Shown: piece by piece, positions 506-11,636 of the stretch
Numbering within the stretch: position 1 is the first letter of the stretch
Layout of the letters: each line of letters opens with the position of its first letter
Assembly: GCA_031409655.1 (NCBI GenBank)
Contig: JANNXQ010000085.1
Span: 1 to 11,636 of the forward strand
Length of the DNA: 11,636 nt
Direction of reading: 5' to 3'
From: Chthoniobacteraceae bacterium
Lineage (GTDB): Bacteria; Verrucomicrobiota; Verrucomicrobiia; Chthoniobacterales; Chthoniobacteraceae
Translations under genes and position numbers: made by a program
The notes under the pieces: generated by a model
Told to the model about the DNA's origin: nothing
The model's database searches: none
Seen by the model: only the letters and a program-made list of their open reading frames with translations

Positions 506-533
506 TACAGCCGAAGGGTGCCCCGCCCGCGAA
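506..533 (+). promoter_or_regulatory. YACR-N19-GCGAW motif, site 1 (candidate alternative-sigma promoter of the phosphatase gene)
   Basis: TACA (506-509; extended TACAGCCG), N19, GCGA (529-532) followed by ATGG. ATG542 lies 9 nt downstream. Confidence 0.6.
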
Positions 534-541
534 TGGTGGGA

Positions 542-1732
542 ATGCTTGATCAACGTGCCCCCTCTCCTTCCGCGCTCGTCGCGGATGTTCCCCGGAAAAT
601 CTTGCTCGTCGATGACGACGCGCCGGCGCGACGCCTCCTCGGAGCCGGTCTCCGCGCCGCGGGGTTCGACCTCCAGGCCGTGGCGGATGGTGCGGAGGCG
701 CTCGCGGCGATTGAAATTGCGCCGCCGGATGTGCTCGTGCTCGATCTGGAACTGCCGGAACTCGACGGTGCTGAGGTCTGCCGCCGCCTCCGGGCATCGG
801 AGCGGGTCGCCCTCAATCAACTCCCCATCATCATGCTGACCGGACACACCGGCGAGGCAGACGAGATCGCGTGTCTGACGGCAGGTGCGAATGATTTCGT
901 GACCAAGCCGGTGAGCCGCGCGGTGCTCGTCGCCCGGATCGAGACGCAACTCCGTCTCGGCGCATTGAGCGAAGAATTGCGCGCGCAGAACGGGGAGATG
1001 GCCCGCTGGCGCGAGGCGCAGGAAGCCGATCTCGCGGTCGCCCGCTCCACTCAGCAGGCGATCGTGGCCATCGCTCCACCGCAGCTCGAAGGCTGGAAGG
1101 TGGAGGCGACTTACACGCCGCTGATTCAGGTCGGCGGGGATGTGTATGGCTGGCGGCAGTTGGATCACGGGGTCTGGCTCATCTGGGTGGCCGATGCCAC
1201 GGGCCATGGCGTCGCAGCGGCCCTGCTCACGAGCCTGGTCGCCTTGCTTTTCAATCACGCCAGCGCCGCATCCCGGACGGCCCATGGGATCCTGGCGAGC
1301 GTGAATGCGGAGTTTTACAGCGTGCTCCAGGGTCACGCTTTTCTCACCGCGTGCTGTGCAGTCATCGACGTCGAAGGGCGGTTGTCCTTTGCCGGAGCTG
1401 GCCATCCGCCGCTGCTCATTCGGAGATGCACCGGTGCCGTCGAGGCCTGGCCATCGCTGAATACGATGATGGGCATCCAGCAGGAGATGGAGATGCGCGA
1501 GTCGGCAGTGACGCTCGCCCCCGGGGACGTCGCGTTGCTCTGCACCGACGGAATGTTCAGCTTGCACGCCGGCGACGGTGAGCGCTTTTCGATCGAGACG
1601 GTCACAGACGCCCTCGGCCAGATCGACGGCAGCGCGGACTTGATCACGCGGCTGATCGCACAACTCGTCCAGCGCTCCGACGCCCAGCCTTTCGATGATG
1701 ACGTGGCGGCGATCGCGCTGCACCGCCGTTAG
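542..1732 (+). CDS. Response regulator receiver + PP2C/SpoIIE phosphatase (RsbU/RsbP-like)
   Basis: REC motifs VDDD, LDLELPELDG, MLTG and KP; coiled-coil linker; PP2C motifs VGGDVY, VADATGHG, AGAGHPP, CTDG and DDD. The start could be 518, 533 or 542; 542 was chosen from the motif spacing. Confidence 0.92.
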   Translation: MLDQRAPSPSALVADVPRKILLVDDDAPARRLLGAGLRAAGFDLQAVADGAEALAAIEIAPPDVLVLDLELPELDGAEVCRRLRASERVALNQLPIIMLTGHTGEADEIACLTAGANDFVTKPVSRAVLVARIETQLRLGALSEELRAQNGEMARWREAQEADLAVARSTQQAIVAIAPPQLEGWKVEATYTPLIQVGGDVYGWRQLDHGVWLIWVADATGHGVAAALLTSLVALLFNHASAASRTAHGILASVNAEFYSVLQGHAFLTACCAVIDVEGRLSFAGAGHPPLLIRRCTGAVEAWPSLNTMMGIQQEMEMRESAVTLAPGDVALLCTDGMFSLHAGDGERFSIETVTDALGQIDGSADLITRLIAQLVQRSDAQPFDDDVAAIALHRR

Positions 1733-1740
1733 CGGAGGCG

Positions 1741-1769
1741 TTGCATTGCCCTCCGCCCGCTTCGACACT
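1741..1769 (+). promoter_or_regulatory. Possible sigma70-type promoter for the single-domain receiver
   Basis: TTGCAT, N17, GACACT in the 48-nt intergenic gap, 11 nt before ATG1781. Same architecture as the putative tRNA promoter. Confidence 0.3.
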
Positions 1770-1780
1770 CCCTTCTCCCC

Positions 1781-2188
1781 ATGCCACCAGGCTCACCATC
1801 CTCGAGCGCGCCAGAGCCCGTGCGGCTGTCGCTGCTCGTCGTCGAGGATCACGAAGCGACCGCGGTGGTCATGGCGAGGCTGCTCGGCCGGCGCGGCCAC
1901 ACCGTCGTCACCGCCCGCTCGTGCGCGGAGGCGGAGGCGGCATTTTCCGCGCAGCGATTCGATTGCCTCATCAGCGACCTGACTCTGCCCGATGGCAGCG
2001 GGCATGAATTGATGCGCAGATTGCATGGGCGAAGCGCGATCGCCGGCATCGCGGTGAGTGGCTCCGGAAACGAGGACGACGTGGAGCAGGCGCTCGCCTC
2101 CGGTTTCGCCCGACACTTCACCAAACCGATCGACATCGACCGCTTGCAGCAAGCGCTCCTCGAGCTCGCCGCCGATTCCCGGACTTAG
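1781..2188 (+). CDS. Single-domain response regulator (REC only)
   Basis: VVEDH acidic pocket, ISDLTLPDGSG phospho-Asp region, AVSG and FTKP; no output domain. Confidence 0.9.
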   Translation: MPPGSPSSSAPEPVRLSLLVVEDHEATAVVMARLLGRRGHTVVTARSCAEAEAAFSAQRFDCLISDLTLPDGSGHELMRRLHGRSAIAGIAVSGSGNEDDVEQALASGFARHFTKPIDIDRLQQALLELAADSRT

Positions 2189-2213
2189 TCCCGCCCGCGC
2201 ATTTCCTCCACCC

Positions 2214-2868
2214 ATGAACCTCGTCGATCGCAAGGGTTTCACCGGGCCACTCCTGATCCTGGTTTTGCTCGTCACCACGGCGGCGACGCTGCGATTCGCG
2301 CAGGATTTCTTTCTTCCGCTGGCGCTCGCGGGGTTGCTGAGCTTTCTGCTTTCGCCGCTCGTCCGGCGCCTGGAACGCTGGCACCTCGGGCGCGTGGGCG
2401 CGGTCCTCGTGACGGCGACGCTGGCGTTCGTCCTTATCGGCGGGCTCACCTATCTGGTCGCCAGCCAGGTGCTCGACCTCGCGGGCTCGGTGCCGAAATA
2501 CCGCAGCAATCTCATCGCGCGGGTGTCGGCGCTGAAGACGCACGAAAACAATCCGTTGAGCCGCGCGTTCCAGACGATCAGTGAAGTCACTGCCGCGCTG
2601 AATAAGCAGGAGGAAATGGGCGCGTTGCCCGCCGTCGCGGAAAAGACCCGGCCAGTGCGGGTGGAAGTGGTCCAGTCGGCCGACGGCTCGATGCACCTGC
2701 TCCTGGGAGTGCTCTGGCCGGTCATCGGCCCGCTCGCCGATACCGCGGTGGTCATCGTCATCGTGATCTTCATGCTGCTGGCTGGCGAAGACTTGCGCGA
2801 CCGGCTCATCCACCTCCTGGGCCGCGGGCGGTTGCGGGTGACGACGCAGGCGCTGGATGAAGCCGGGC
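2214..2868 (+). pseudogene. AI-2E (PerM/YhhT) family transporter, 3'-truncated
   Basis: FFLPLALAGLLSFLLSPLVRRLE...P.Y..N...IFMLL..EDLRDRLIHLLG...VTTQALDEAG is typical of the N-terminal half of this family. Similarity stops abruptly near 2868 and the frame runs on in non-homologous Arg-rich sequence to 3116. Confidence 0.85.
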
Positions 2869-3024
2869 ATGCAACTCAAGCTCGACGAACTGATCCGCGC
2901 GATCAAAGGCGCACGCAACAGTCTCATCGACCTCGAAGAGATGTCCGAAGCAGACCTGAAGAAACTCGAGGAAGAGTTCCGCAAATTGCGCGCGGAAAAA
3001 CCGGACTCTTCGACGCTGGGCTAA
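2869..3024 (+). pseudogene. C-terminal fragment of a low-affinity iron permease family (Fet4-like) protein
   Basis: In a different frame: MQLKLDELIRAIKGARNSLIDLEEMSEADLKKLEEEFRKLRAEKPDSSTLG*. QLKLDELIRA..GARN.L.DLEE is the characteristic C-terminal segment of this family. The N-terminal TM part is absent. Confidence 0.8.
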
Positions 3025-3128
3025 TCCTGCGCCGGCAATACGCAGTTGACATCACGTGGCGCACGCGTCGTCGCGGTCCTTCATCGGGCAATACACTTCT
3101 TACGCGCCGGGTTTGAGCTCAAATGAGA

Positions 3129-3155
3129 CACAGCCGCACCGCGCGCGCGAAGCGA
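3129..3155 (+). promoter_or_regulatory. YACR-N19-GCGA motif, site 2 (orphan; no intact downstream gene)
   Basis: CACA (3129-3132; extended CACAGCCG), N19, GCGA (3152-3155). It is intergenic and points at the patatin stop codon. Confidence 0.4.
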
Positions 3156-3163
3156 CGTTCCCG

Positions 3164-5415
3164 TCACCGCTGATGCTGTCCGTGACGAAAGACCGGCCCG
3201 ATCTGGAGATACACCGCGGCCTCGCCACCCTCCGCCAGCCCGACCCCGAGATGCAGCAGGCCCATGAAGGTATCCGCGCCGAGAAAAACGCTGCCGCCAT
3301 AAACGGCATCGTCCAGCTTGAAATCTCCCACGTCCGCTGCGACCTCGCCCGCTTCGAGCGAAAAACCGGCATAGATGCCGCGGCCCACCGCCGGCGAAAC
3401 GTCCGCGATTTTTCGGTAGTAGATTAGCTCGGCGAGGAGCGCGTTCTGGTCGTAGAGATCGCCGCGGGCCAGGCCGGAAAGCTGGAGGAAACCGCCAAGC
3501 TGGAACCGGTCGTAGATCGGGATGTCTCCGCCGCCCGCTTTCAAGCCCGCGAACACCCGCGGCACGACGGTGTTTTTGCCAAACGTGAGCGGCTTGTAGA
3601 ATTCGCCTTCGAGCCGCGTGTAGTTGTCGTCGGCACCGAATTCTTTGCGCGAAGCGACCACGGAGGCACGCCCGTAGTAGCCGCGCGTGGCGAAACTCGG
3701 CGCGTCGAGCATATCGACCGTGAACTCGGCGTGCGCCCAGCCGCGGTCGATGGTGCCGGGCAGATCGTCGAGCACGCCGAATCGCCGCGTGGTCTTGCTG
3801 ACCGCCCGCGCGTAGCCGAAGCGAAACTCGCCGGCCTGCCCCACCCGCACGCCGGCATCGAGGCCCGTACCGACCGTCTGGAGCCGGAACCGGATCGGCT
3901 GCCGCGCGGAGTCCGTGCCGTCGATGAACTCGCTCGCGAAGAACGCGCGGGGCGCGACGAAGAACCGCCGCGCCTTGTCCAGCGGCTGAACCCATTCCGT
4001 GAGCCCGCGGTTGGCATCGCCGACGCTCAGAAAGGTGGTCCACTCCGCGCCGAGTGAGTTGAGTTCGGCCATGCGGTAGGAGAGCAGGAAGTTGGCGTCC
4101 GTCTCGCCCGAGGAGCGATAGGCGAAATCGATCCCGAAGCCCACGGTGTTCCGCCCGGTCTTCCTTTCCCGCGTCTTGATCAGCAGCCCGTAGGCGCCCT
4201 CCTGATCGATCACCTCATAGTCGGAGACATCGAACTTTTGCATCGGCACCAGCCCGGCGATCGTGCTCTGGAGCGGAGCGAATCTGGCCGGATCTTTGGT
4301 CTCAAACTCGATCGGCTTTCCGAGTGCATGCTCGGTCTCTCCGGACGGCGTGCGCACGCGGAGGAAGGAGATCATCACTCGCTCCGGGCGCGGCACCCGC
4401 TGGCCGGCGAGGTAGCCGCGGAACCGCTCCGGCCCGGCGGAGAAGTGCGCCAGCGCGGCCCTTTTCGCCATCGCCTGCTCGTAGCCGGTCGGGATTATTT
4501 TTGCCGCCGCGGTGAAATCTGTCTGTCCCAAGTCCTCGATGCGCAGCGCGAGGTAAACGTCATCCGGCCCGAGCCGTGCGAGCTGGGTTTTCGTCTCCTT
4601 CTGGATGAAAATGTTGAGCATCTGATCGGCGATCGCGCCCGCGTCGCCCAGTTCGGATGCCTTCCTCAGCGGCGTGCTGGCGTCGATCGCGATGATGATG
4701 TCGGCGCCCATATCCTTCACGGTCTGCACCGGGAGGTTGCTCGTGAGGCTTCCGTCCACGAGCAGGCGTCCGGCGATCTTGTGCGGCGCGAAAAAGCCGG
4801 GAACCGCCATGCTGGCACGCATCGCCTCGGCGAGGTCGCCCCCGCCGAGCACCACGAGCGCGCCGGTCTCATGTCGGTGGCTACCGCGCGGAAGCGGATC
4901 GGCAGCCGGTCGAAGTCATGAATGCCGCGCGCCGGGATCGTAAGCTGCCGCAGGCTCGCCATCAGGTTGCGCCCCTGGACGAATCCGGCGGGCAACTGCG
5001 CGCCCCTCCTGAGAGACACGCTGAGTTCGAGTTTTTGGTTCAGGTCAAAGTCGCGCTGTTTGCTGCGCAACTGCTGACTCTCGCGCGGCGCGGCGTCGGA
5101 GAGCAGGAAGTTCCAGTCCGCATTGCGGAACCAATCGTCGATCTCCTCCGGCGACATGCCGCTGGCGTAGAGGCCGCCGACGACCGCGCCGATGCTGGTC
5201 CCGGCGATGCAGTCGATCGGGATGCGCAATTCCTCCAGCGCCTTCAGCACGCCGATGTGAGCCACGCCACGCGCGCCGCCGCCGCTCAGGACGAGGCCGA
5301 TCCTCGGACGCCGCGAGCCGCTCGTGTCCTCCGCGTGCAGCGCCGGAAGGGGGAGGAAAAGCGCGGCTGCGAAAAACGCTGTCACGGCTGCTGGGAACGC
5401 GCGGGCGAAAGTCAT
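3164..5415 (-). pseudogene. Patatin-like phospholipase fused to POTRA-like/Omp85 beta-barrel (PlpD-like), frameshifted near 4870
   Basis: Signal peptide MTFARAF...[12 protein letters not shown] and GTSIG lie in ORF 4717..5451. [17 protein letters not shown] and the barrel ending YLQIGPVF lie in ORF 3164..4855. Adding one base at GAC AT(N)GAG ACC GGC restores ATD(M/I)ETGALVVL. A sequencing error is possible. Confidence 0.88.
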
Positions 5416-5464
5416 GGAGACAGGGAATGAGAAAACTTTCGGATTGTGCAAGCGGGCGGATGCC

Positions 5465-5663
5465 TCACCGCAGCGGCCAGACGCGCGGGACGAGCAGGAT
5501 GGCGACGGCGAAGATGATCACCGCGAGGAGCGCGCCGACTTTCCAAAAATCCGCAAAGCGGTAGGCCCGGGGGGGCGAAGACCATCACGCAGCAAGTCTC
5601 CAACGGCGCGAGTCAGGAGGTGCTCACGGCGGCGGCGACCATCATCGCGAAGGAGCGCGGGTT
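5465..5663 (-). pseudogene. SLC13/DASS-family (TrkA-C type) permease, C-terminal remnant
   Basis: NPRSFAMMVAAAVSTS*LAPLETCCVMVFAPPG, then a frameshift near the G run 5569-5575, then [32 protein letters not shown]. In-frame TGA at 5615-5613. Matches the family C-terminus (A.S....P.......V..PG.YRF.DF.KVG). Confidence 0.78.
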
Positions 5664-5847
5664 ATTTACTCTGCTCCCTTGGTCGGAGGGATTGGCGCGG
5701 CGCGGGCACCCTCGGGGTCTGGGCGCGGATTTCCTCGCGCCCCGCTTTACCCCGTGAATCCCGAGCCTTGGGTTTTTCACGAGGGTCCGAGGGCTTCTTC
5801 TTGTTCGCGGTTACTTTCGACAGCTGGCTTGGTCTTTGTTTTTTCAT
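5662..5847 (-). CDS. Small basic, probably disordered hypothetical protein (61 aa)
   Basis: MKKQRPSQLSKVTANKKKPSDPREK...REQSK*: 20 K/R versus 6 D/E and no aromatic residues. It fills the gap co-directionally with its neighbours. Confidence 0.5.
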   Translation of the reverse strand: MKKQRPSQLSKVTANKKKPSDPREKPKARDSRGKAGREEIRAQTPRVPAPRQSLRPREQSK

Positions 5848-5888
5848 AGCTGCGATTTTCCTGCATTCGCGATCCTGAATGAAAATGG

Positions 5889-6122
5889 CTACCGGATGAC
5901 GTCCTTGATGGCGTCCCTCGTCTTCCGGGCGGCATCCTCGACGGAATCGCAAATGCGCTTTGCCGTGTCCTCCACCTTGTCGGCACCTGTCCGACGGTCG
6001 CGTGAAGCCAGTGCCGCCAACGGAGCCTTCGCTTGAGCCACGGTGAAGCGGGCCATTTCCGTCGCAAGATACGCCTGGAGATTTCCCAGCTTCACCGCAG
6101 CCTCCTTCCGCTCCTTTCCGGT
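5889..6122 (-). pseudogene. 5'-truncated paralog of the lipoprotein at 9583..10086
   Basis: 77 codons (TGKERKEAAVKLGNLQAY...DAIKDVIR*) align without gaps to the C-terminal 77 aa of the 9583 protein, 51/77 identical by hand count. No signal peptide or lipobox. Confidence 0.85.
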
Positions 6123-6145
6123 GGATACGGAGAGGAGGATTGGAG

Positions 6146-6352
6146 TTATTTGGTTTTTACCGTGGTCTTCTTCTCAACGGTGGTTGCGGGGCTTGTCACC
6201 GTGGTTGTCTCGGTCTTCTTTTCCTCCTTCGCTGCCGGAGGATTGATGATGGTAGTGATCTTTTCCACGACCGGCGGGGTGCCGGTGTTCACCCGCGCAT
6301 CGCACGCCGGGAGGAGTGCCAGGACCGCCGCGAGGAGGATTGGTGCTTACAT
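6146..6352 (-). pseudogene. Small Thr/Lys-rich lipoprotein with a nonsense codon at position 2
   Basis: M*APILLAAVLALLPACDARVNTGTPPVVEKITTIINPPAAKEEKKTETTTVTSPATTVEKKTTVKTK*. TAA at 6349-6347 is likely from AAA (MK start). Lipobox LPAC. ATG is 2 nt after the upstream stop. Not in the ORF track. Confidence 0.75.
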
Positions 6353-6354
6353 GG

Positions 6355-6534
6355 TCAGTAGGTCCGGACGGCCCGCGTTTCCGTGGTGGTGCTGCGGGCT
6401 GGCTGACGGACCGTGGTTTCTTCGGTGGTCGTGGTGCTTGTCTGCGTTTGGGGCGGAGCCTCGACGGTGGTGCAAGCGGGAAGTGCCATGAAGCCCGCGA
6501 CGATCAATGGAACGATCAGGAATTTTTTCATCAT
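6355..6534 (-). CDS. Small Thr-rich lipoprotein (59 aa)
   Basis: MMKKFLIVPLIVAGFMALPACTTVEAPPQTQTSTTTTEETTVRQPARSTTTETRAVRTY*: basic N-terminus, hydrophobic core, lipobox LPAC. Below the ORF-track length cutoff. Confidence 0.8.
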   Translation of the reverse strand: MMKKFLIVPLIVAGFMALPACTTVEAPPQTQTSTTTTEETTVRQPARSTTTETRAVRTY

Positions 6535-6549
6535 AGGTTTGTTTAATGG

Positions 6550-6948
6550 TTACTTCTTTTCGGTGGTGGTGGTCGTCGTCGTCGTCTTTTTCTCCTCGAT
6601 GACCGGAGCCGTGGGTTTCACGACGACCTTCCTCACCACGACTTTCGAGGCGACCATCTTGTCCCCCACTTTGGTGTAATAGACAGTCACTGGCAGACCT
6701 GACTTTACGGTCGTCAGGGTCACGGGTGCGCCTGCCTCATCCACATAGACGGTCTTTGTGGTGTAGGTGTAGCGAATCGGTTCCGGGGCCGCCTCCGTCT
6801 TGATGACGAGGATGTCGGGCCCAAACTCGCTGATGGTTCCGCCGGTGTTCGTCGTGGTGGTGGTCTCCACGGTCGCTTGCGCCCAGCCGGAACTGGTGAC
6901 GGCGAGCAGGAGGCCCATGATGGCTGCTATGATGCTACGTGTTCTCAT
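6550..6948 (-). CDS. Secreted hypothetical protein with a beta-rich core and poly-Thr termini (132 aa)
   Basis: Sec signal MRTRSIIAAIMGLLLAVTSSGWA; ETTTTT at the N-terminus; core GTISEFGPD..VIKT...Y.YT..T.YVD..G.PV....VKSG.PVTVYY....MVASKVVV (OB-fold-like by inference); EEKKTTTTTTTTEKK tail. Confidence 0.85.
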   Translation of the reverse strand: MRTRSIIAAIMGLLLAVTSSGWAQATVETTTTTNTGGTISEFGPDILVIKTEAAPEPIRYTYTTKTVYVDEAGAPVTLTTVKSGLPVTVYYTKVGDKMVASKVVVRKVVVKPTAPVIEEKKTTTTTTTTEKK

Positions 6949-6960
6949 AAGACCCGCTGA

Positions 6961-6988
6961 ATCGCAGCCTGGGGCCAGTGCGCGTGTA
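6961..6988 (-). promoter_or_regulatory. YACR-N19-GCGAW motif, site 3 (upstream of the Thr-rich operon)
   Basis: Minus strand TACA (6988-6985), N19, GCGA (6965-6962) followed by T. ATG6948 lies 13 nt downstream. Confidence 0.55.
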
Positions 6989-7065
6989 AAAATCGCCGGA
7001 AATATTTAGGGCAAGACTGTAGCTGCGCGTAGTCCCTAAGCGTCTTTTGGCGCAGGCCGGCAGTC

Positions 7066-7320
7066 TCACCGCAGCGGCCAGAAGCGCGGGACGAGCAGGA
7101 TGGCCGGGGCGGAGACGATCACCGTCAGGAGCTCGCCGACTTTCAAGAAGTCCGCAAAGCGAGAGCGGCCCGGGCCGAATCCGTCGAACGCCCGCTCGAC
7201 CGGCCGCAGCGCCGTGAGTACGAGCGTCACCAGAAGGCCGGGCGCGATGGTGTCCGCGGTGAACCAATCGAGGGAGAAGAGCCCGACCGCGGCGAGCATG
7301 AGAGCGATTGGAAAAGTCGT
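7066..7320 (-). pseudogene. SLC13/DASS-family permease reduced to fused N- and C-termini by an internal deletion
   Basis: (ACG)TFPIALMLAAVGLFSLDWFTADTIAPGLLVTLVLTALRPVERAFDGFG resembles the family N-terminus (LF......D....L..L.L.G......AF.GF). It joins in frame near 7175 to PGRSRFADFLKVGELLTVIVSAPAILLVPRFWPLR*, the family C-terminus. The probable start codon is mutated from ATG to ACG. Confidence 0.72.
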
Positions 7321-7336
7321 CGCTTGCTGAATCGCC

Positions 7337-9079
7337 TCAAGCGCCTTGGCTGATCGGTGTCGCGTCGGTCTTGGGCAGCGCGGCGATTTCGCTGCTCCCA
7401 TCGTTCTTGAGCAGGAGCAGCCGATCGTGGAATTCCTTGAGCGTGGAGCGGTGGCCGACGCTGACGAAGGCGATGCCGGAGGCGCGCAGCTTTTCGTAGA
7501 GGAAGCGTTCGTTTTCCTCGTCGAGCGCGCTGGTGGCTTCGTCGAGAAATGCGATGGCGGGCTTTTTCAAAAAGAGCCGGGCGAAGGCGACGCGCTGCTG
7601 TTCGCCGAGGGAAAGTACGTTGGTCCAATCGATGACTTTGCCGAGATCGCTGCCGACGCGGGCGAAGATGTCGTGGAGGTTCACGTCTTCGAGGACGGCG
7701 GTGATGGCGGTGTCTTCGGCGTCTTCTTCGCCGAGCGGATACATGAGCTGCGCGCGGAGGTTGCCGGGCACCATGTAGGGTTTTTGTGGGAGGAAGATGA
7801 GGCGGTTGTGTGCAGGGCGATCGATCTGGCCTCCACCTGGAGCCCAGAGGCCGGCGATGGTGCGGAGGAGCGAGCTTTTGCCCGAGCCGCTCTCGCCCAT
7901 GACGAGCAGGCTGCCGCGCCGGGGAAGCTGAAGGCTGAGGTGCTGGGTCAGGGTTTTGTCGCCACCGGGCGTTTGCACGGTCACGTCGTCGAGCTTGAGC
8001 TGGAGGGCCTCATCGTTGATTTCGCCCTTCGCTTCCTCGGCCTCGCGGGCGTCCTCGGCGTCGAACTCATCGAGGTTGTCCCAGAGGTCGCCGAGGCGGC
8101 GGATGCCGGCGGTGAAGGAGCTGAGGCCCTCGATTTGCGCGATGATGATGGAGACGGCCGCGAGCACCGCGGCGAAGGCACCCTGGGCCTGGGTGACGAC
8201 GCCGAACTCCACCGTGCCGCGCATGAACATGGGGCCGACGATGAGGACGGGGATGATGAGGGCGAGGTAGTTGTAGCCGTTGGCGAAGAAGCCCAGGTTC
8301 CGCGTCCAGCCGATGATCCAGAAGGTGTTTTCCAGCACCGCGTTGAGGCGTTCGATGAGGTCGCGATGCTCGCGCTTTTCCCCGCGAAAGAAGGCGACGG
8401 ATTCCGCATTGTCGCGCACGCGGACGAGGCCGTAGCGGAAGGTGGCTTCTTTTTGATACTGATTGAAATAGAGGCCCACGAGCCGCCGCCCGAAGAGCAT
8501 GGAGATCCCGGTGCCGACCGTGGCATAGATGAAGAGAACGCCGACGAGCTGGCCCGAGACGGCCCACAGGACGCCGAGGAAGCCGATCAGCGTCACGACC
8601 GAGTTGACGATGACGAGAAAGAAATTCAGCACGCCGGTGGTGAAGAGTTTCGCGTCTTCCGCGATCCGCTGGTCGGGGTTGTCCACGCTCTCGGAGGCGC
8701 GGATGCGGTAGTAGGCGCGGTTGAAAAAATAGCGCTTGATGAGGAGCTGCGTCAGCCAGCGCCGCCAGGCGAGCGAGAGCCGCTCCTGCGAGTAGCGGTA
8801 GAAGACGCCGACGGGGACGGAGATCAGGCAGACGGCGAGATATTTCCAGATCCCGCGCACCCACGCCGCGTGGTCGCGCTGGGCGAGCGCGGTGATGAAA
8901 TCGCGCATCGCGTAGCTGAGGAAAACCTGGACGACCCCGACGGCGACGCAGAGCCCGAGCAAGGCCGCGAGCCACAGCCGCGCCTGCCGCTTCGCCCCGC
9001 CATTGAAGAAGGCTTTGGCGAGAACGAAGAACTTCCTGAACAGGACCAGGTGGGTTTTCCCGGCGTCGGACATGAGCAC
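7337..9079 (-). CDS. Fused ABC transporter permease/ATP-binding protein, YddA/Rv1819c/ABCD family
   Basis: DNPDQRIAED; EAA-like EATFRYGLVRVRDNAESVAFFRG; Walker A GESGSGKS; FLPQKPY; signature LSLGEQQR; Walker B AFLDEATSALD; SVGHR. Start is GTG9079 or ATG9073. Confidence 0.94.
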   Translation of the reverse strand: MLMSDAGKTHLVLFRKFFVLAKAFFNGGAKRQARLWLAALLGLCVAVGVVQVFLSYAMRDFITALAQRDHAAWVRGIWKYLAVCLISVPVGVFYRYSQERLSLAWRRWLTQLLIKRYFFNRAYYRIRASESVDNPDQRIAEDAKLFTTGVLNFFLVIVNSVVTLIGFLGVLWAVSGQLVGVLFIYATVGTGISMLFGRRLVGLYFNQYQKEATFRYGLVRVRDNAESVAFFRGEKREHRDLIERLNAVLENTFWIIGWTRNLGFFANGYNYLALIIPVLIVGPMFMRGTVEFGVVTQAQGAFAAVLAAVSIIIAQIEGLSSFTAGIRRLGDLWDNLDEFDAEDAREAEEAKGEINDEALQLKLDDVTVQTPGGDKTLTQHLSLQLPRRGSLLVMGESGSGKSSLLRTIAGLWAPGGGQIDRPAHNRLIFLPQKPYMVPGNLRAQLMYPLGEEDAEDTAITAVLEDVNLHDIFARVGSDLGKVIDWTNVLSLGEQQRVAFARLFLKKPAIAFLDEATSALDEENERFLYEKLRASGIAFVSVGHRSTLKEFHDRLLLLKNDGSSEIAALPKTDATPISQGA

Positions 9080-9469
9080 CTATCGCCGGATGAGAAGACC
9101 GGCGACGAAACCGGCGGCGAGGGCCACCAGCAAGGCTTTGCGCGGCTGCTGACTCACGCAATCCTCCGCCTCTTCACGCAGCGTGCGAACGCGCTGGCGG
9201 GTTTGTTCGTAAGCCTCGCCAGCGGCTCCGGTGACTTTCGCTTTCACATCCCCGGCGAAGTCCGTCGCGGCCGCTTGCAGATGATTGAGCAGTTCAATCA
9301 GCGCCTCCTCCGTGAGGCCGAGCTTCGTCTGCAGGCGACCGAGCAGTTCCTCGCCTTTGCCTTCGAGGAATTCGAGATCGTCGTCGGTGAGGAGCGCAAA
9401 TTTCTGCCGGAGCTGGCCTTTGATTTGGTGCCAGGAGCCATCGAAGATGAAGGGGTGCAAGGTGTTCAT
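9080..9469 (-). CDS. CsbD/YjbJ-family domain fused to a DUF883 (ElaB/YqjD)-type C-terminal membrane anchor
   Basis: GSWHQIKGQLRQKFALLTDDDLEFLEGKGEELLGRLQTKLG is CsbD-like. A helical linker leads to VSQQPRKALLVALAAGFVAGLLIRR, a DUF883-type tail. Confidence 0.88.
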   Translation of the reverse strand: MNTLHPFIFDGSWHQIKGQLRQKFALLTDDDLEFLEGKGEELLGRLQTKLGLTEEALIELLNHLQAAATDFAGDVKAKVTGAAGEAYEQTRQRVRTLREEAEDCVSQQPRKALLVALAAGFVAGLLIRR

Positions 9470-9477
9470 ACCTGATT

Positions 9478-9505
9478 ATCGCGGCGCGCGGCGTGTCCGG
9501 TCGTG
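9478..9505 (-). promoter_or_regulatory. YACR-N19-GCGAW motif, site 4 (upstream of csbD-like gene and ABC transporter)
   Basis: Minus strand CACG (9505-9502; extended CACGACCG), N19, GCGA (9482-9479) followed by TAAT. ATG9469 lies 9 nt downstream. Confidence 0.6.
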
Positions 9506-9545
9506 CAAAATGCGGGAATGTGACGCGGCTCTTTTTTAGAAAGCA

Positions 9546-9573
9546 TACGACCGCCCGCGCCATCATTCGCGAA
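9546..9573 (+). promoter_or_regulatory. YACR-N19-GCGAW motif, site 5 (upstream of the lipoprotein operon)
   Basis: TACG (9546-9549; extended TACGACCG), N19, GCGA (9569-9572) followed by ATGG. ATG9583 lies 10 nt downstream. Confidence 0.62.
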
Positions 9574-9582
9574 TGGACAGGC

Positions 9583-10086
9583 ATGAATCCACGCACATTT
9601 CCCCTGCTCGCTGTCGTCTCCGCTTTGGTTGCCGTCGCGGGTTGCGAACGCAAAACCGTGGTGGTGATCGAGCCGCCCAAACCGCTCGCGGAGCCGGTCG
9701 CGAAGACCCGGACGCTGGAAACTTCGCGCCTGGGATCGGCGGTCGATACCTTTGATCGCGAGCCGAACGCCGCCAATCACGCAGTGGCAAAGAAGGCGCT
9801 CGCGGAACTCGACGGCGAGATTGCGGAACTCGAAGAACTCGTGGCGAAGCGCAGTGGGAGCAGCCGGGAGGAGGCCGCGGTGAAATTGAAAAATCTCCAG
9901 GCTTATCGTGCGGCGGAGGTGACGCGCTTCACCGTGGCGCAGGCCAAAGCCCCGCTCGGCGCACAGCCGCCAGTCGATGCGCGATCCGGCGCGGACAAGG
10001 TGGAAGACACCGCAAAACGTGTCGGCAATTCCATCGAGGATGCGGCGCAAAAAGCGGGTGACGCCATCAAGAATGCCGTCCGCTAG
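9583..10086 (+). CDS. Lipoprotein with coiled-coil and LEA-like C-terminus (167 aa)
   Basis: MNPRTFPLLAVVSALVAVAGC signal with lipobox VAGC; helical segment ALAELDGEIAELEELVAK; paralogous fragment at 5889..6122 supports coding status. Confidence 0.85.
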   Translation: MNPRTFPLLAVVSALVAVAGCERKTVVVIEPPKPLAEPVAKTRTLETSRLGSAVDTFDREPNAANHAVAKKALAELDGEIAELEELVAKRSGSSREEAAVKLKNLQAYRAAEVTRFTVAQAKAPLGAQPPVDARSGADKVEDTAKRVGNSIEDAAQKAGDAIKNAVR

Positions 10087-10105
10087 TTCCCGCACTTTCA
10101 AGAAA

Positions 10106-10381
10106 ATGAAGGTGATCGGCTCCGAAAAACCGCCCACGCATCCCGCCGCCGCCCACTCGTGGCTCAACCATGCCGACGCCTTCGCCCGCCGAGAACCAAC
10201 GAAGGCGGTCGTGTCCGCATTTGGCGCGGGATTTCTGATCAACCTGCTTCCCATCGCGGCGATCGTTGGCGCACTCGCCGCCCTCGCCTGCACGCTGGTG
10301 CGACCGGCCCTGCTCTTCTTCGGCCTGCTCAAAGTGTGGGAACTCTGTCCTGCAAAAAACGACCCAACGCCTAATCCATGA
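10106..10381 (+). CDS. Small membrane protein with DUF883-like motif (91 aa)
   Basis: ADAFARREPTKAVVSAFGAGFLINLL followed by further hydrophobic segments. Its stop overlaps the next start (ATGA). Confidence 0.75.
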   Translation: MKVIGSEKPPTHPAAAHSWLNHADAFARREPTKAVVSAFGAGFLINLLPIAAIVGALAALACTLVRPALLFFGLLKVWELCPAKNDPTPNP

Positions 10382-10722
10382 ACACACGATCCGATCCCGC
10401 CACCGAGTGCGCGACAAAGCTCAATCGCCTGGCCCGCGAAAATCCCACGCGCTCCCTGCTCTTCGCCATTGGCTGCGGTCTCGCCGCCGGCCTCCTCGTG
10501 CGCGCACTGCAATCGCGTCCTTTGGAAAGTCGCGCGGCCCGCTTGCTGGATGAAATCCAGAACCGGCTGCACGGCCTCGCCGCACCCGTCCACCGGCACG
10601 CGGATCGTCTGGTCGAAAGCGGCGCGGGCACGGTCCGAAACGGCGTCGCCCATTTCCACGATCTCCAACTCTACCGCGGCCTGCGGAATCTTGGCCGCCG
10701 ATGCAAAAGCCTATTCCGCTAA
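10378..10722 (+). CDS. Small membrane-anchored protein with N-terminal DUF883-like motif (114 aa)
   Basis: ARENPTRSLLFAIGCGLAAGLLVR followed by an amphipathic helical region. Translationally coupled to the upstream gene by ATGA. Confidence 0.75.
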   Translation: MNTRSDPATECATKLNRLARENPTRSLLFAIGCGLAAGLLVRALQSRPLESRAARLLDEIQNRLHGLAAPVHRHADRLVESGAGTVRNGVAHFHDLQLYRGLRNLGRRCKSLFR

Positions 10723-10859
10723 TCCATCCAGAAAACCAACCAGCCATGAAACCCATCCTTGCCCCCACCGTGGCGATGGACAACACGCTGGTCGAATCCG
10801 GCGTTGTGAGTGGTCACTCGCCGCAGGATTGAGGGCGTTGCTCTGCCAAAGGCCGCAGT

Positions 10860-11636
10860 TCAAGCCCGACCCCGCAGCCACTCCCGCAGGAGGTTCAGGT
10901 CCAAGGGCTTGACCAGGTATTCGTCGAAGCCGGCGGCTCGCGCCTCGGCGCGGTCTTCATCGCTGCCGTATCCGCTCATCGCCACGAGAAAGGCGCCAGC
11001 CAGCGCGGGCATGCCGCGCAGTCGGCGGGCGACTTCGAAGCCGTCCATGCCGGGCAGGCCGATGTCCAACAGTACGACTTCGGGCAAAAACTCGGCGGCG
11101 ACGGTGACGGCATCCGGGCCGGTGAAAGCGGTGCGCGTTTCATGCCCGCGCCGGCGCTGGAGGATCGCCATGCTGCGCGTGGAGTCTTCGTTGTCGTCCA
11201 CGATGAGAATCCGCCGGGGCGCCTCATGCGCCGCGGGTGCCGCGGGCGGAGAATATTCGACGGGCGGCGCGGCCAGGATCGGGAGACGCACGATGAATTC
11301 GCTGCCGTGCCCGAGGCCTTCGCTTCGCGCCTCGACGCTGCCGCCGTGCAGCTTCACGAGCCGCTGGACGAGCGTGAGGCCGATGCCGAGTCCGCCGTGC
11401 GCGCGGTCGAGCGCCCGGGTGGCTTGGACGAAAAGATCGAAGATGTGCGGCAGCAGTTCCGGCGCGATCCCCATGCCGTTGTCGCGCACGCGCACGATGA
11501 TCTCCGCCGGCTCCGTTCCCTTCGCCGGAGCGCGCTCGGCGCTCAGTGAAATGGTCGAGCCGGCGTTGCTGTATTTGCAGGCATTGCCGAGGAGATTGCC
11601 GAAGACCTGCTCGAGCCGCGTGGCATCCGCATTCAA
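10860..11636 (-). CDS. Hybrid sensor histidine kinase/response regulator, C-terminal HATPase_c + REC (5' truncated by window edge)
   Basis: N box EQVFGNLLGNACKY, G1 DNGMGI, F box IFDLF and G2 GGLGIGL; REC motifs VDDN, LDIGLPGMDG, MSGYG and VKP. Confidence 0.94.
   Translation of the reverse strand: MNADATRLEQVFGNLLGNACKYSNAGSTISLSAERAPAKGTEPAEIIVRVRDNGMGIAPELLPHIFDLFVQATRALDRAHGGLGIGLTLVQRLVKLHGGSVEARSEGLGHGSEFIVRLPILAAPPVEYSPPAAPAAHEAPRRILIVDDNEDSTRSMAILQRRRGHETRTAFTGPDAVTVAAEFLPEVVLLDIGLPGMDGFEVARRLRGMPALAGAFLVAMSGYGSDEDRAEARAAGFDEYLVKPLDLNLLREWLRGRA

Follow-up and report, generated by a model that had tools for sequence, protein, structure and literature searches.

A probable extracytoplasmic function sigma factor promoter at stress-gene heads in Chthoniobacteraceae, and its candidate SigK-like reader

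The window analysed here is the entire 11.6-kb contig C85 (11,636 nucleotides) of a Chthoniobacteraceae bacterium assembly (GCA_031409655.1; 6.85 Mb, 63% GC), and four of its gene heads carry the same pair of sequence boxes at the same spacing. In the initial annotation the boxes were read as the −35/−10 pair of a lineage-specific general-stress sigma factor, and this view is supported both by the genes that they precede and by the co-occurrence of the sites with one group of sigma factors. Judged from sequence, the motif is very probably a promoter of the extracytoplasmic function (ECF) type, and a clade of SigK-like ECF sigma factors encoded inside motif-rich stress islands probably reads it. 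In the following the source genome is labelled G000 and its relatives G002–G490; contigs such as C5 and C58 belong to G000, and L-numbers denote loci.

At all four gene heads YACR and GCGAW are separated by exactly 19 nt as first described (Table 1), but as the upstream box covers about 8 nt the spacer proper measures 15 nt. The copy at 3129, which had been counted as a fifth site, reads GCGAC instead of GCGAW and is no gene-head promoter. It is oriented antisense to the patatin/Omp85 gene and points into its 3′ end, no counterpart was seen at the matching place in either of two orthologous loci, and it is a relic or a chance occurrence. In the window the short form YACR-N19-GCGAW is found five times against 1.08 expected, a number reached in 2 of 200 shuffles, and one of the five, at 3667 (+) inside a coding region, is probably due to chance. 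The long form YACRRCCG-N15-GCGAW is found three times against 0.01 expected, and none of the 200 shuffles reached three. As the sites at 9505 and 9546 lie inside a block that is 85% identical to contig C5, the motif copies on C5 are not independent of them. A site with a 14-nt spacer before the patatin gene (7.9 bits) was tried as well and rejected; it is not retained in either of two orthologues.

Over the entire genome the plain pattern YACR-N19-GCGAW is not in excess at this spacing (470 matches vs 430–994 at other spacers). Near gene starts, YACRRCC followed by GCGAW gives six upstream matches at the right spacing vs 0–2 at twelve other spacings, and a matrix built from the five window copies gives eight upstream matches at 16 bits vs 0–1 at eight shifted spacers, C5 being included. 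In a stricter test the matrix was made from the four gene-head sites, C85 and C5 were excluded, and 5331 upstream regions were scanned. Six matches of at least 12 bits then lie 8–13 nt before starts, compared with 0–2 for six shifted spacers and likewise 0–2 in eight shuffles. The enrichment that had been expected within 45 nt of start codons is weak or nil over 8–45 nt (10 matches vs 2–10 in shuffles at 12 bits, 32 vs 16–35 at 10 bits). Since the excess is present at 8–13 nt and weak or nil over the broader range, the regulon is small and the signal positional. Gene starts were taken from our own codon-model caller (5557 genes), which is wrong in some cases (GTG 9520 was picked over ATG 9583). 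Reversed-pattern controls, including that of the 201-genome survey described below, were set aside because reversal alters codon-related word frequencies.

As iteration of the matrix pulled in many doubtful sites, the island sites alone were used later. A matrix made from 19 of them finds 30 sites, training sites included, that score 9 bits or more and lie no further than 50 nt from a called start, on the contigs C5, C58, C85, C165, C210, and C260; further sites are on C276. The motif-rich contigs carry TreY, TreS, and TreZ (all above NCBIfam cut-offs), GlgX, a long catalase, and a ferritin-like protein, together with CsbD, DUF1328, DUF892, DUF2383, DUF2934, DUF3309, and BON proteins and several kinases and receivers. 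A csbD gene on C114 belongs to a different subtype and is without the motif. The motif marks many small uncharacterised genes as stress genes.

The element is also found in relatives. From the regions upstream of 30 csbD genes, 29 of them in other genomes, Gibbs sampling with no seed motif recovered the identical two boxes and spacing, and among 27 positive csbD loci 20 sites sit 8–12 nt from the ATG used and none sits nearer than 8 nt. The proposal that the phosphatase gene of the window is itself a member of the regulon is supported by its closest orthologues (G012, G028, G002, G036, G030, and G008), in which the site is retained 8–9 nt before the start. In addition, the G028 homologues of the lipoprotein and Thr-rich genes have a site 9 nt before the start, and in G030 a site precedes a Ku-like gene recognised by eye; several matches of the search that returned these sites are chance open reading frames. 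In a survey of 201 genomes from the order, the exact pattern followed by an ATG was found in 124 (a tally that takes in G490); the control is imperfect and some matches are due to chance. These observations bear on the possibility that the motif is the site of a regulator of housekeeping promoters, or else a chance pattern of GC-rich DNA copied by island duplication. The weak enrichment over the broad upstream window, the duplication of two window sites on C5, and the occurrence of 9–12-bit matches within window genes would fit such an origin. Nevertheless, the single orientation, the single spacer, the sharp 8-nt minimum to the ATG, and the unseeded recovery in other genera render it very improbable.

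With the additional sites the consensus is better written YRCRNCCR-N15-(G)CGAW, with YACRCGCR as a flavour of the upstream box and the ATG usually 8–12 nt 3′. The housekeeping element TAnnnT peaks from 6 nt before the ATG, which is the usual leaderless geometry. Its counts at 6–10 nt before the ATG of 4454 G000 genes are 73, 61, 39, 42, and 53 vs ∼10–30 elsewhere, and GGAG shows little peak before the ATG of the same genes; leaderless mRNAs appear to be common in this genome. The shortest gap to the ATG puts the A of CGAW at −10 and the A of TAnnnT at −11 or further. If the shortest gap of each class marks the start site, the motif would read C−12 G−11 A−10 W−9, which is the register of ECF promoters; a Sinorhizobium meliloti ECF promoter lies 9 nt upstream of the mapped start (PMC3616915).

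The same register speaks to two other sigma factors. The only region-3 sigma factors found in G000 are those on C55, C19, and C32 plus FliA, and a short RpoD-like (RpoS-like) factor, that on C19 or C32, might read the motif, as RpoS-like factors run such stress regulons elsewhere. A good motif site indeed lies 83 nt upstream of the C32 gene, and the C19 type is present in G028. However, orthologues of C32 occur in 8 of 61 genomes, with a strict motif near one of the eight, the C19 type is also present in the motif-negative genomes G051 and G060, and the −10 position of the A in CGAW differs from that of the A in TAnnnT. We regard a reader of this kind as improbable. A FliA (sigma28) promoter with altered spacing, to which the initial annotation had pointed, fails by distribution and is extremely improbable. 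The CGAW core and its register do resemble the FliA −10 and G000 has a FliA above the cut-off, but FliA was found in 17 of the 61 relatives, and many genomes that bear the motif are without it; it was not found in G022, G023, G041, G049, and G055, which are 96–100% complete and have csbD sites.

We return to the ECF-type promoter. That the motif matches no known consensus, as was initially stated, is not correct. The spacing and most bases are those of the consensus of the Streptomyces ECF19 factor LitS, GCATCCR-N15-CVGAAD (PMC11519972), and the window sites have 3–5 mismatches to it at the 13 specified positions in the same register; some sites read TGCATCCA or TACATCCG. Thus, the motif is a variant of a published ECF19 consensus and not a new promoter class. 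It has in common with the LitS promoter the 15-nt spacer, the CCR end of the −35, and the CGA core of the −10, whereas its −35 is looser (ACRNCCR, the AT of ATCC being often lost) and its −10 is usually GCGAW. For ECF19 the typical promoter is given as ATC/CG and an anti-sigma gene at +1 as the rule (PMC7826278), with Verrucomicrobia making up 0.51% of the group (supplement to PMC7826278); the passages of PMC7509140 consulted give no consensus.

Among the 42 sigma region-2 matches of G000, two paralogous ECF genes (C58:11693–12349 and C276:33358–33990) lie inside motif-rich islands, with DUF1328 genes, kinases, and sigma54 activators as neighbours. ECFs of their clade consist of Pfam regions 2 and 4 only. 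SigK is among their top two NCBIfam models, at 127–137 bits vs a cut-off of 226, and is also their best PDB match (E 2e-21), with Rhodobacter sphaeroides RpoE nearly equal; this affinity to the mycobacterial ECF19 member SigK is by NCBIfam and PDB search. The two nearest named relatives of one of the ECF genes of the genome (95% and 78% identity) are both from Chthoniobacteraceae. In a midpoint-rooted tree of the 64 best matches, one of them truncated, 54 clade rows are split at 100/100 from ten ordinary, RskA-linked SigK-like ECFs. The 54 rows share the signature TR[LI][EDQH]L in region 4.2, and where the clade has TR[LI]EL SigK has SRMRD. By eye, and for the next open reading frame only, an anti-sigma-like gene at +1 was seen in none of the 54 clade loci vs 6 of 10 outgroup loci; Pfam confirmed an anti-sigma partner for the C219 ECF only, and the clade might have an anti-sigma factor encoded at some other locus. 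Hence, unlike in the ECF19 group, no RskA-like gene follows the clade copies: the motif appears to work like an ECF19 promoter, yet the candidate sigma factor fails the anti-sigma feature of that group. The targets likewise differ from those of LitS and SigK, being a broad stress set and not carotenoid or antigen genes. Part of the clade (L025, L031–L038, L046, and L049) has an N-terminal extension starting with MLY(S/E)FD, a candidate regulatory or degradation tag.

Co-occurrence of clade and motif was assessed with a matrix from 19 non-csbD sites of G000 on the csbD upstream regions of 92 loci, a subset of all csbD matches, in 80 genomes. G000, the source of the training sites, was omitted. 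G014, whose csbD upstream region scores 8.3, was left out because its clade status is unclear, a kinase-like neighbour being cut by the contig end at the expected place of the ECF gene. A csbD site of at least 6 bits is present in 26 of 43 clade-positive vs 1 of 37 clade-negative genomes, and the mark of 8 bits is reached by 19 of 43 vs none of 37, the clade status of genomes outside the tree being assigned by score range. Outside the order, G179 and G380 have both the clade and the csbD site, and inside the order G060 has neither. Within one genus, G306, G437, and G424 have four, four, and three pattern matches together with an ECF in the score range of the clade, and G051 has neither.

The clade genes themselves appear to be controlled in a different way. 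Gibbs sampling upstream of 33 of them returned a sigma54-type element and not the motif. The sigma54 consensus is GG-N10-GC, and this pattern occurs within 200 nt upstream of 35 of the 54 clade copies. The controls gave fewer matches, with 2 of 54 for a control window, 4 of 54 for the opposite strand, 1 of 10 for the outgroup ECFs, and 2 of 20 for a fourth set. G000 has one RpoN, and two enhancer-binding activators are encoded on the ECF contigs. As there is no anti-sigma gene beside the ECF gene, we suggest that the sigma factor is switched on by transcription. In ten clade loci a sensorless protein of 220 amino acids is encoded head to head with the ECF (Table 1), and with a partial match downstream in one more the count is 11 of 54. 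Predicted from an alignment, its fold (pLDDT 86) is that of a histidine-kinase core, with ZraS as the best match (E 6e-12). The protein has an invariant histidine and, by eye, apparently lacks the usual ATP-binding glycine box; it is likely a phosphotransferase. For a partner-switching role of the window phosphatase there is no support, the STAS and RsbW-like genes lying outside the islands and being without the motif.

Two further sequence features were seen upstream of clade genes: a AGAGTAAA-like word ∼9 nt before the −24 box of the sigma54-type element (e.g. in L025, L032, L036, and L047) and, farther upstream, repeats rich in TGTC/GACA, of which a palindrome pattern caught few. Both may be activator or accessory sites. 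At C276:33061–33990 the ECF gene is immediately preceded, on the same strand, by a DUF3309 gene with a motif site at its head, and the sigma54 −12 element of this ECF copy is degenerate; read-through positive feedback is possible for this copy.

A number of observations weigh against reading by the clade and against its control by sigma54. At csbD 17 of the 43 clade-positive genomes stay below 6 bits. Clade presence largely follows the taxonomic order, so that the genomes are not independent and Fisher values overstate the association, and many clade-negative csbD genes are of another subtype. G028 (94% complete) has strong sites before homologues of three window genes, and no clade ECF was found in G028 or in its congener G483. 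In G028, csbD and the kinase-like neighbour were likewise searched for and not found, and the phosphatase gene is interrupted by an internal stop; this case would fit a recent loss that left relic promoters behind, a gap in the assembly, or cross-reading by the C66-type ECF of G028. ECF genes are mostly without the motif (few of 34 ECF loci had it upstream), and autoregulation thus does not identify the partner sigma factor. A stress or signalling neighbour of the types tested is found within 1.5 kb in just 18 of the 54 clade loci, and 19 of the 54 copies, C276 included, fail the sigma54 pattern. Distant orthologues of the phosphatase mostly lack the site: 6 of the 24 scorable ones reach 8 bits vs 1–4 at shifted spacers, 5 of the 29 loci being not anchored and some matches being chance open reading frames.

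The G028 case leads to the question whether ordinary SigK-like paralogues, the RskA-linked C219 ECF or the C66 ECF, read the motif wholly or partly, with the island ECF as passenger or as second reader. G028, with a C66-type ECF only, retained three sites, TGCATCCA-N15-GCGCA with identical spacing lies upstream of the C219 ECF, and in the clade-negative G060 a single 16-bit site precedes the gene of a small membrane protein. On the contrary, in G002, G049, and G365 clade members are the sole SigK-like matches (RskA and C66 types were not found) and csbD carries the site, whereas G060, G256, G298, G317, and G340 encode ECFs of the outgroup type and lack the site before csbD. Moreover, the outgroup ECFs of G340, G173, and G060 have upstream motifs of their own which are, by eye, one base shorter. 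We consider reading by these paralogues unlikely and prefer the island-encoded clade as the reader.

Thus, we suggest that the boxes would be the −35 and −10 of an ECF19-type promoter, read by the SigK-like ECF encoded inside the same stress islands. RNA polymerase would start at or beside the ATG and yield mostly leaderless mRNAs. The ECF gene would be switched on transcriptionally from its sigma54-type promoter by an enhancer-binding response regulator which, to go by gene context only, might be fed by the histidine kinases of the islands and the sensorless kinase-like phosphotransfer protein. The chain would then run from kinase to enhancer-binding protein and sigma54, to the ECF, and on to ∼30 promoters in G000, with trehalose synthesis, catalase, ferritin-like, CsbD, DUF1328, DUF892, and BON proteins, and signalling genes including the window phosphatase as outputs. 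On the sequence data at hand we hold this chain as a whole to be rather likely.

A comparable cascade is that of HrpL, in which HrpXY acts via HrpS/RpoN on an anti-sigma-free, transcriptionally controlled ECF (PMC8103513). The corresponding features are present here, namely the −24/−12-type element (35/54 vs 2/54), RpoN, and enhancer-binding proteins. In Borrelia a sigma factor is reportedly also switched on via sigma54 and an enhancer-binding protein (Rrp2-RpoN-RpoS). The control proposed here is like both cascades in that the sigma gene is under sigma54 and an enhancer-binding protein; however, those cascades run virulence or host-stage programmes, whereas here the output would be protection from general stress and the ECF is of another lineage. 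With EcfG (ECF15), the general-stress ECF of alphaproteobacteria which is controlled by NepR/PhyR partner switching (PMC8103513), the system would share an ECF as general-stress master, a two-component link, and similar target types. It differs in its promoter and in its control, which appears to be transcriptional and not by NepR/PhyR; NepR was found in none of 31 genomes searched, a Caulobacter control being positive. SigB and RpoS regulons share target families with the one described here, that is, csbD, long catalase, trehalose genes, DUF892, and YflT-like genes. Nevertheless, the C19 and C32 factors score below the RpoS and SigB cut-offs, and a SigB-type sigma factor with linked RsbV/RsbW was not found in G000, where the STAS and RsbW-like genes are unlinked.

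While the promoter class itself is known, we did not find its likely role in a sigma54-switched general-stress regulon of the Chthoniobacterales described. A taxon number which we take to be that of Chthoniobacter flavus is of relevance in this respect. ECFs are listed under this number in PMC7776599, so that the machine predictions of that work may cover the clade, and a prediction for the clade was not seen in its accessible passages and eight supplementary files. In the literature searched, chiefly at the level of abstracts and with subscription journals poorly covered, we found no description of such a promoter or regulon in this lineage and no account of general-stress control in Verrucomicrobia, and the parts of PMC7343977 and PMC5518139 available to us do not describe it either. 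Verrucomicrobia, ‘Ca. Udaeobacter’ for example, are described as belonging to the most abundant bacteria of soils (PMC7343977), and for this phylum the finding supplies a promoter, a candidate sigma factor, a candidate upstream switch, and a list of targets. The chances seem to us about even that Chthoniobacterales and some other Verrucomicrobia have a fourth master stress sigma factor besides RpoS, SigB, and EcfG, namely an anti-sigma-free SigK-like ECF relayed by sigma54 and an enhancer-binding protein, with a sensorless phosphotransfer step and a mostly leaderless regulon. If true, a SigK-like factor would have been made a global regulator via loss of its anti-sigma neighbour and gain of sigma54 control.

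Table 1. Coordinates of motif sites and genes in the window and of the kinase-like gene beside the candidate sigma factor
Feature	Position	Strand	Basis
Promoter-like site, box TACAGCCG (506–513), 15-nt spacer, GCGAA (529–533); ATG 8 nt on	506–533	+	pattern match
Receiver and PP2C (SpoIIE) phosphatase	542–1732	+	Pfam Response_reg and SpoIIE; start from gene caller
One-mismatch copy CACAGCCG-N15-GCGAC, heads no called gene	3129–3156	+	13.6 bits
Thr-rich 132-aa protein, heads run of small open reading frames	6550–6948	−	open reading frame list; no Pfam family
Promoter-like site TACACGCG-N15-GCGAT; ATG 6948, 12 nt on	6961–6988	−	pattern match
ABC transporter (ABC_membrane_2 / SbmA-BacA-like and ATPase)	7337–9073	−	Pfam; start 6 nt past csbD stop
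CsbD-domain protein, glycine-zipper-like C-terminal tail	9080–9469	−	Pfam CsbD 45.4 bits, cut-off 40
Promoter-like site CACGACCG-N15-GCGAT before csbD; ATG 9469, 8 nt on	9478–9505	−	pattern match
Promoter-like site TACGACCG-N15-GCGAA, back to back with csbD site; ATG 9583, 9 nt on	9546–9573	+	pattern match
Lipoprotein-like gene	9583–10086	+	open reading frame list, gene caller; no Pfam family
Two small membrane-protein genes, same operon as lipoprotein-like gene	10106–10381, 10378–10722	+	no Pfam family
Sensorless kinase-like protein	C58:12526–13185, C276:32369–33046 (L012:12526–13182, L018:10373–11047)		adjoins ECF

Besides the receiver-PP2C phosphatase, the contig carries a single receiver, transporter and patatin/Omp85 genes that are decayed, Thr-rich small open reading frames, the ABC transporter, the CsbD protein, the lipoprotein-like operon, and the end of a hybrid kinase. 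The phosphatase mRNA is likely leaderless. The Thr-rich protein is likely exported and has a paralogue on the stress contig C165, and the ABC transporter is likely co-transcribed with csbD. Of the families CsbD and DUF883 named at first, CsbD stands above its Pfam cut-off, but DUF883_C is weak (E 0.0018, below the cut-off) and matches solely in the CsbD protein. The operon at 9583–10722 lies within the block resembling C5; this similarity extends over the right end of the window (9065–11635, 85% identity), and with an assembly contamination of 5% strain mixing is possible.

A tRNA-Leu(CAG) gene at 307–389 separates the 3′ end of dnaN from the first motif site, and the stress block may have been inserted beside this tRNA gene. 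Decay is seen in the middle of the window (2214–3024, 3164–5415, 5437–6292, and 7065–7330), the remnants being a cut AI-2E transporter, an iron-permease fragment, the patatin/Omp85 gene split over two frames, and remnants of C5 genes. Finally, csbD genes of a different subtype in the clade-negative genomes G300, G220, G256, G298, and G317 (L122, L128, L130, L131, and L170) share an upstream element of another kind, in which GGAACAC or AAAACAC precedes TTGCCGT and a short inverted repeat. This element might be a second ECF promoter or else act at the RNA level.

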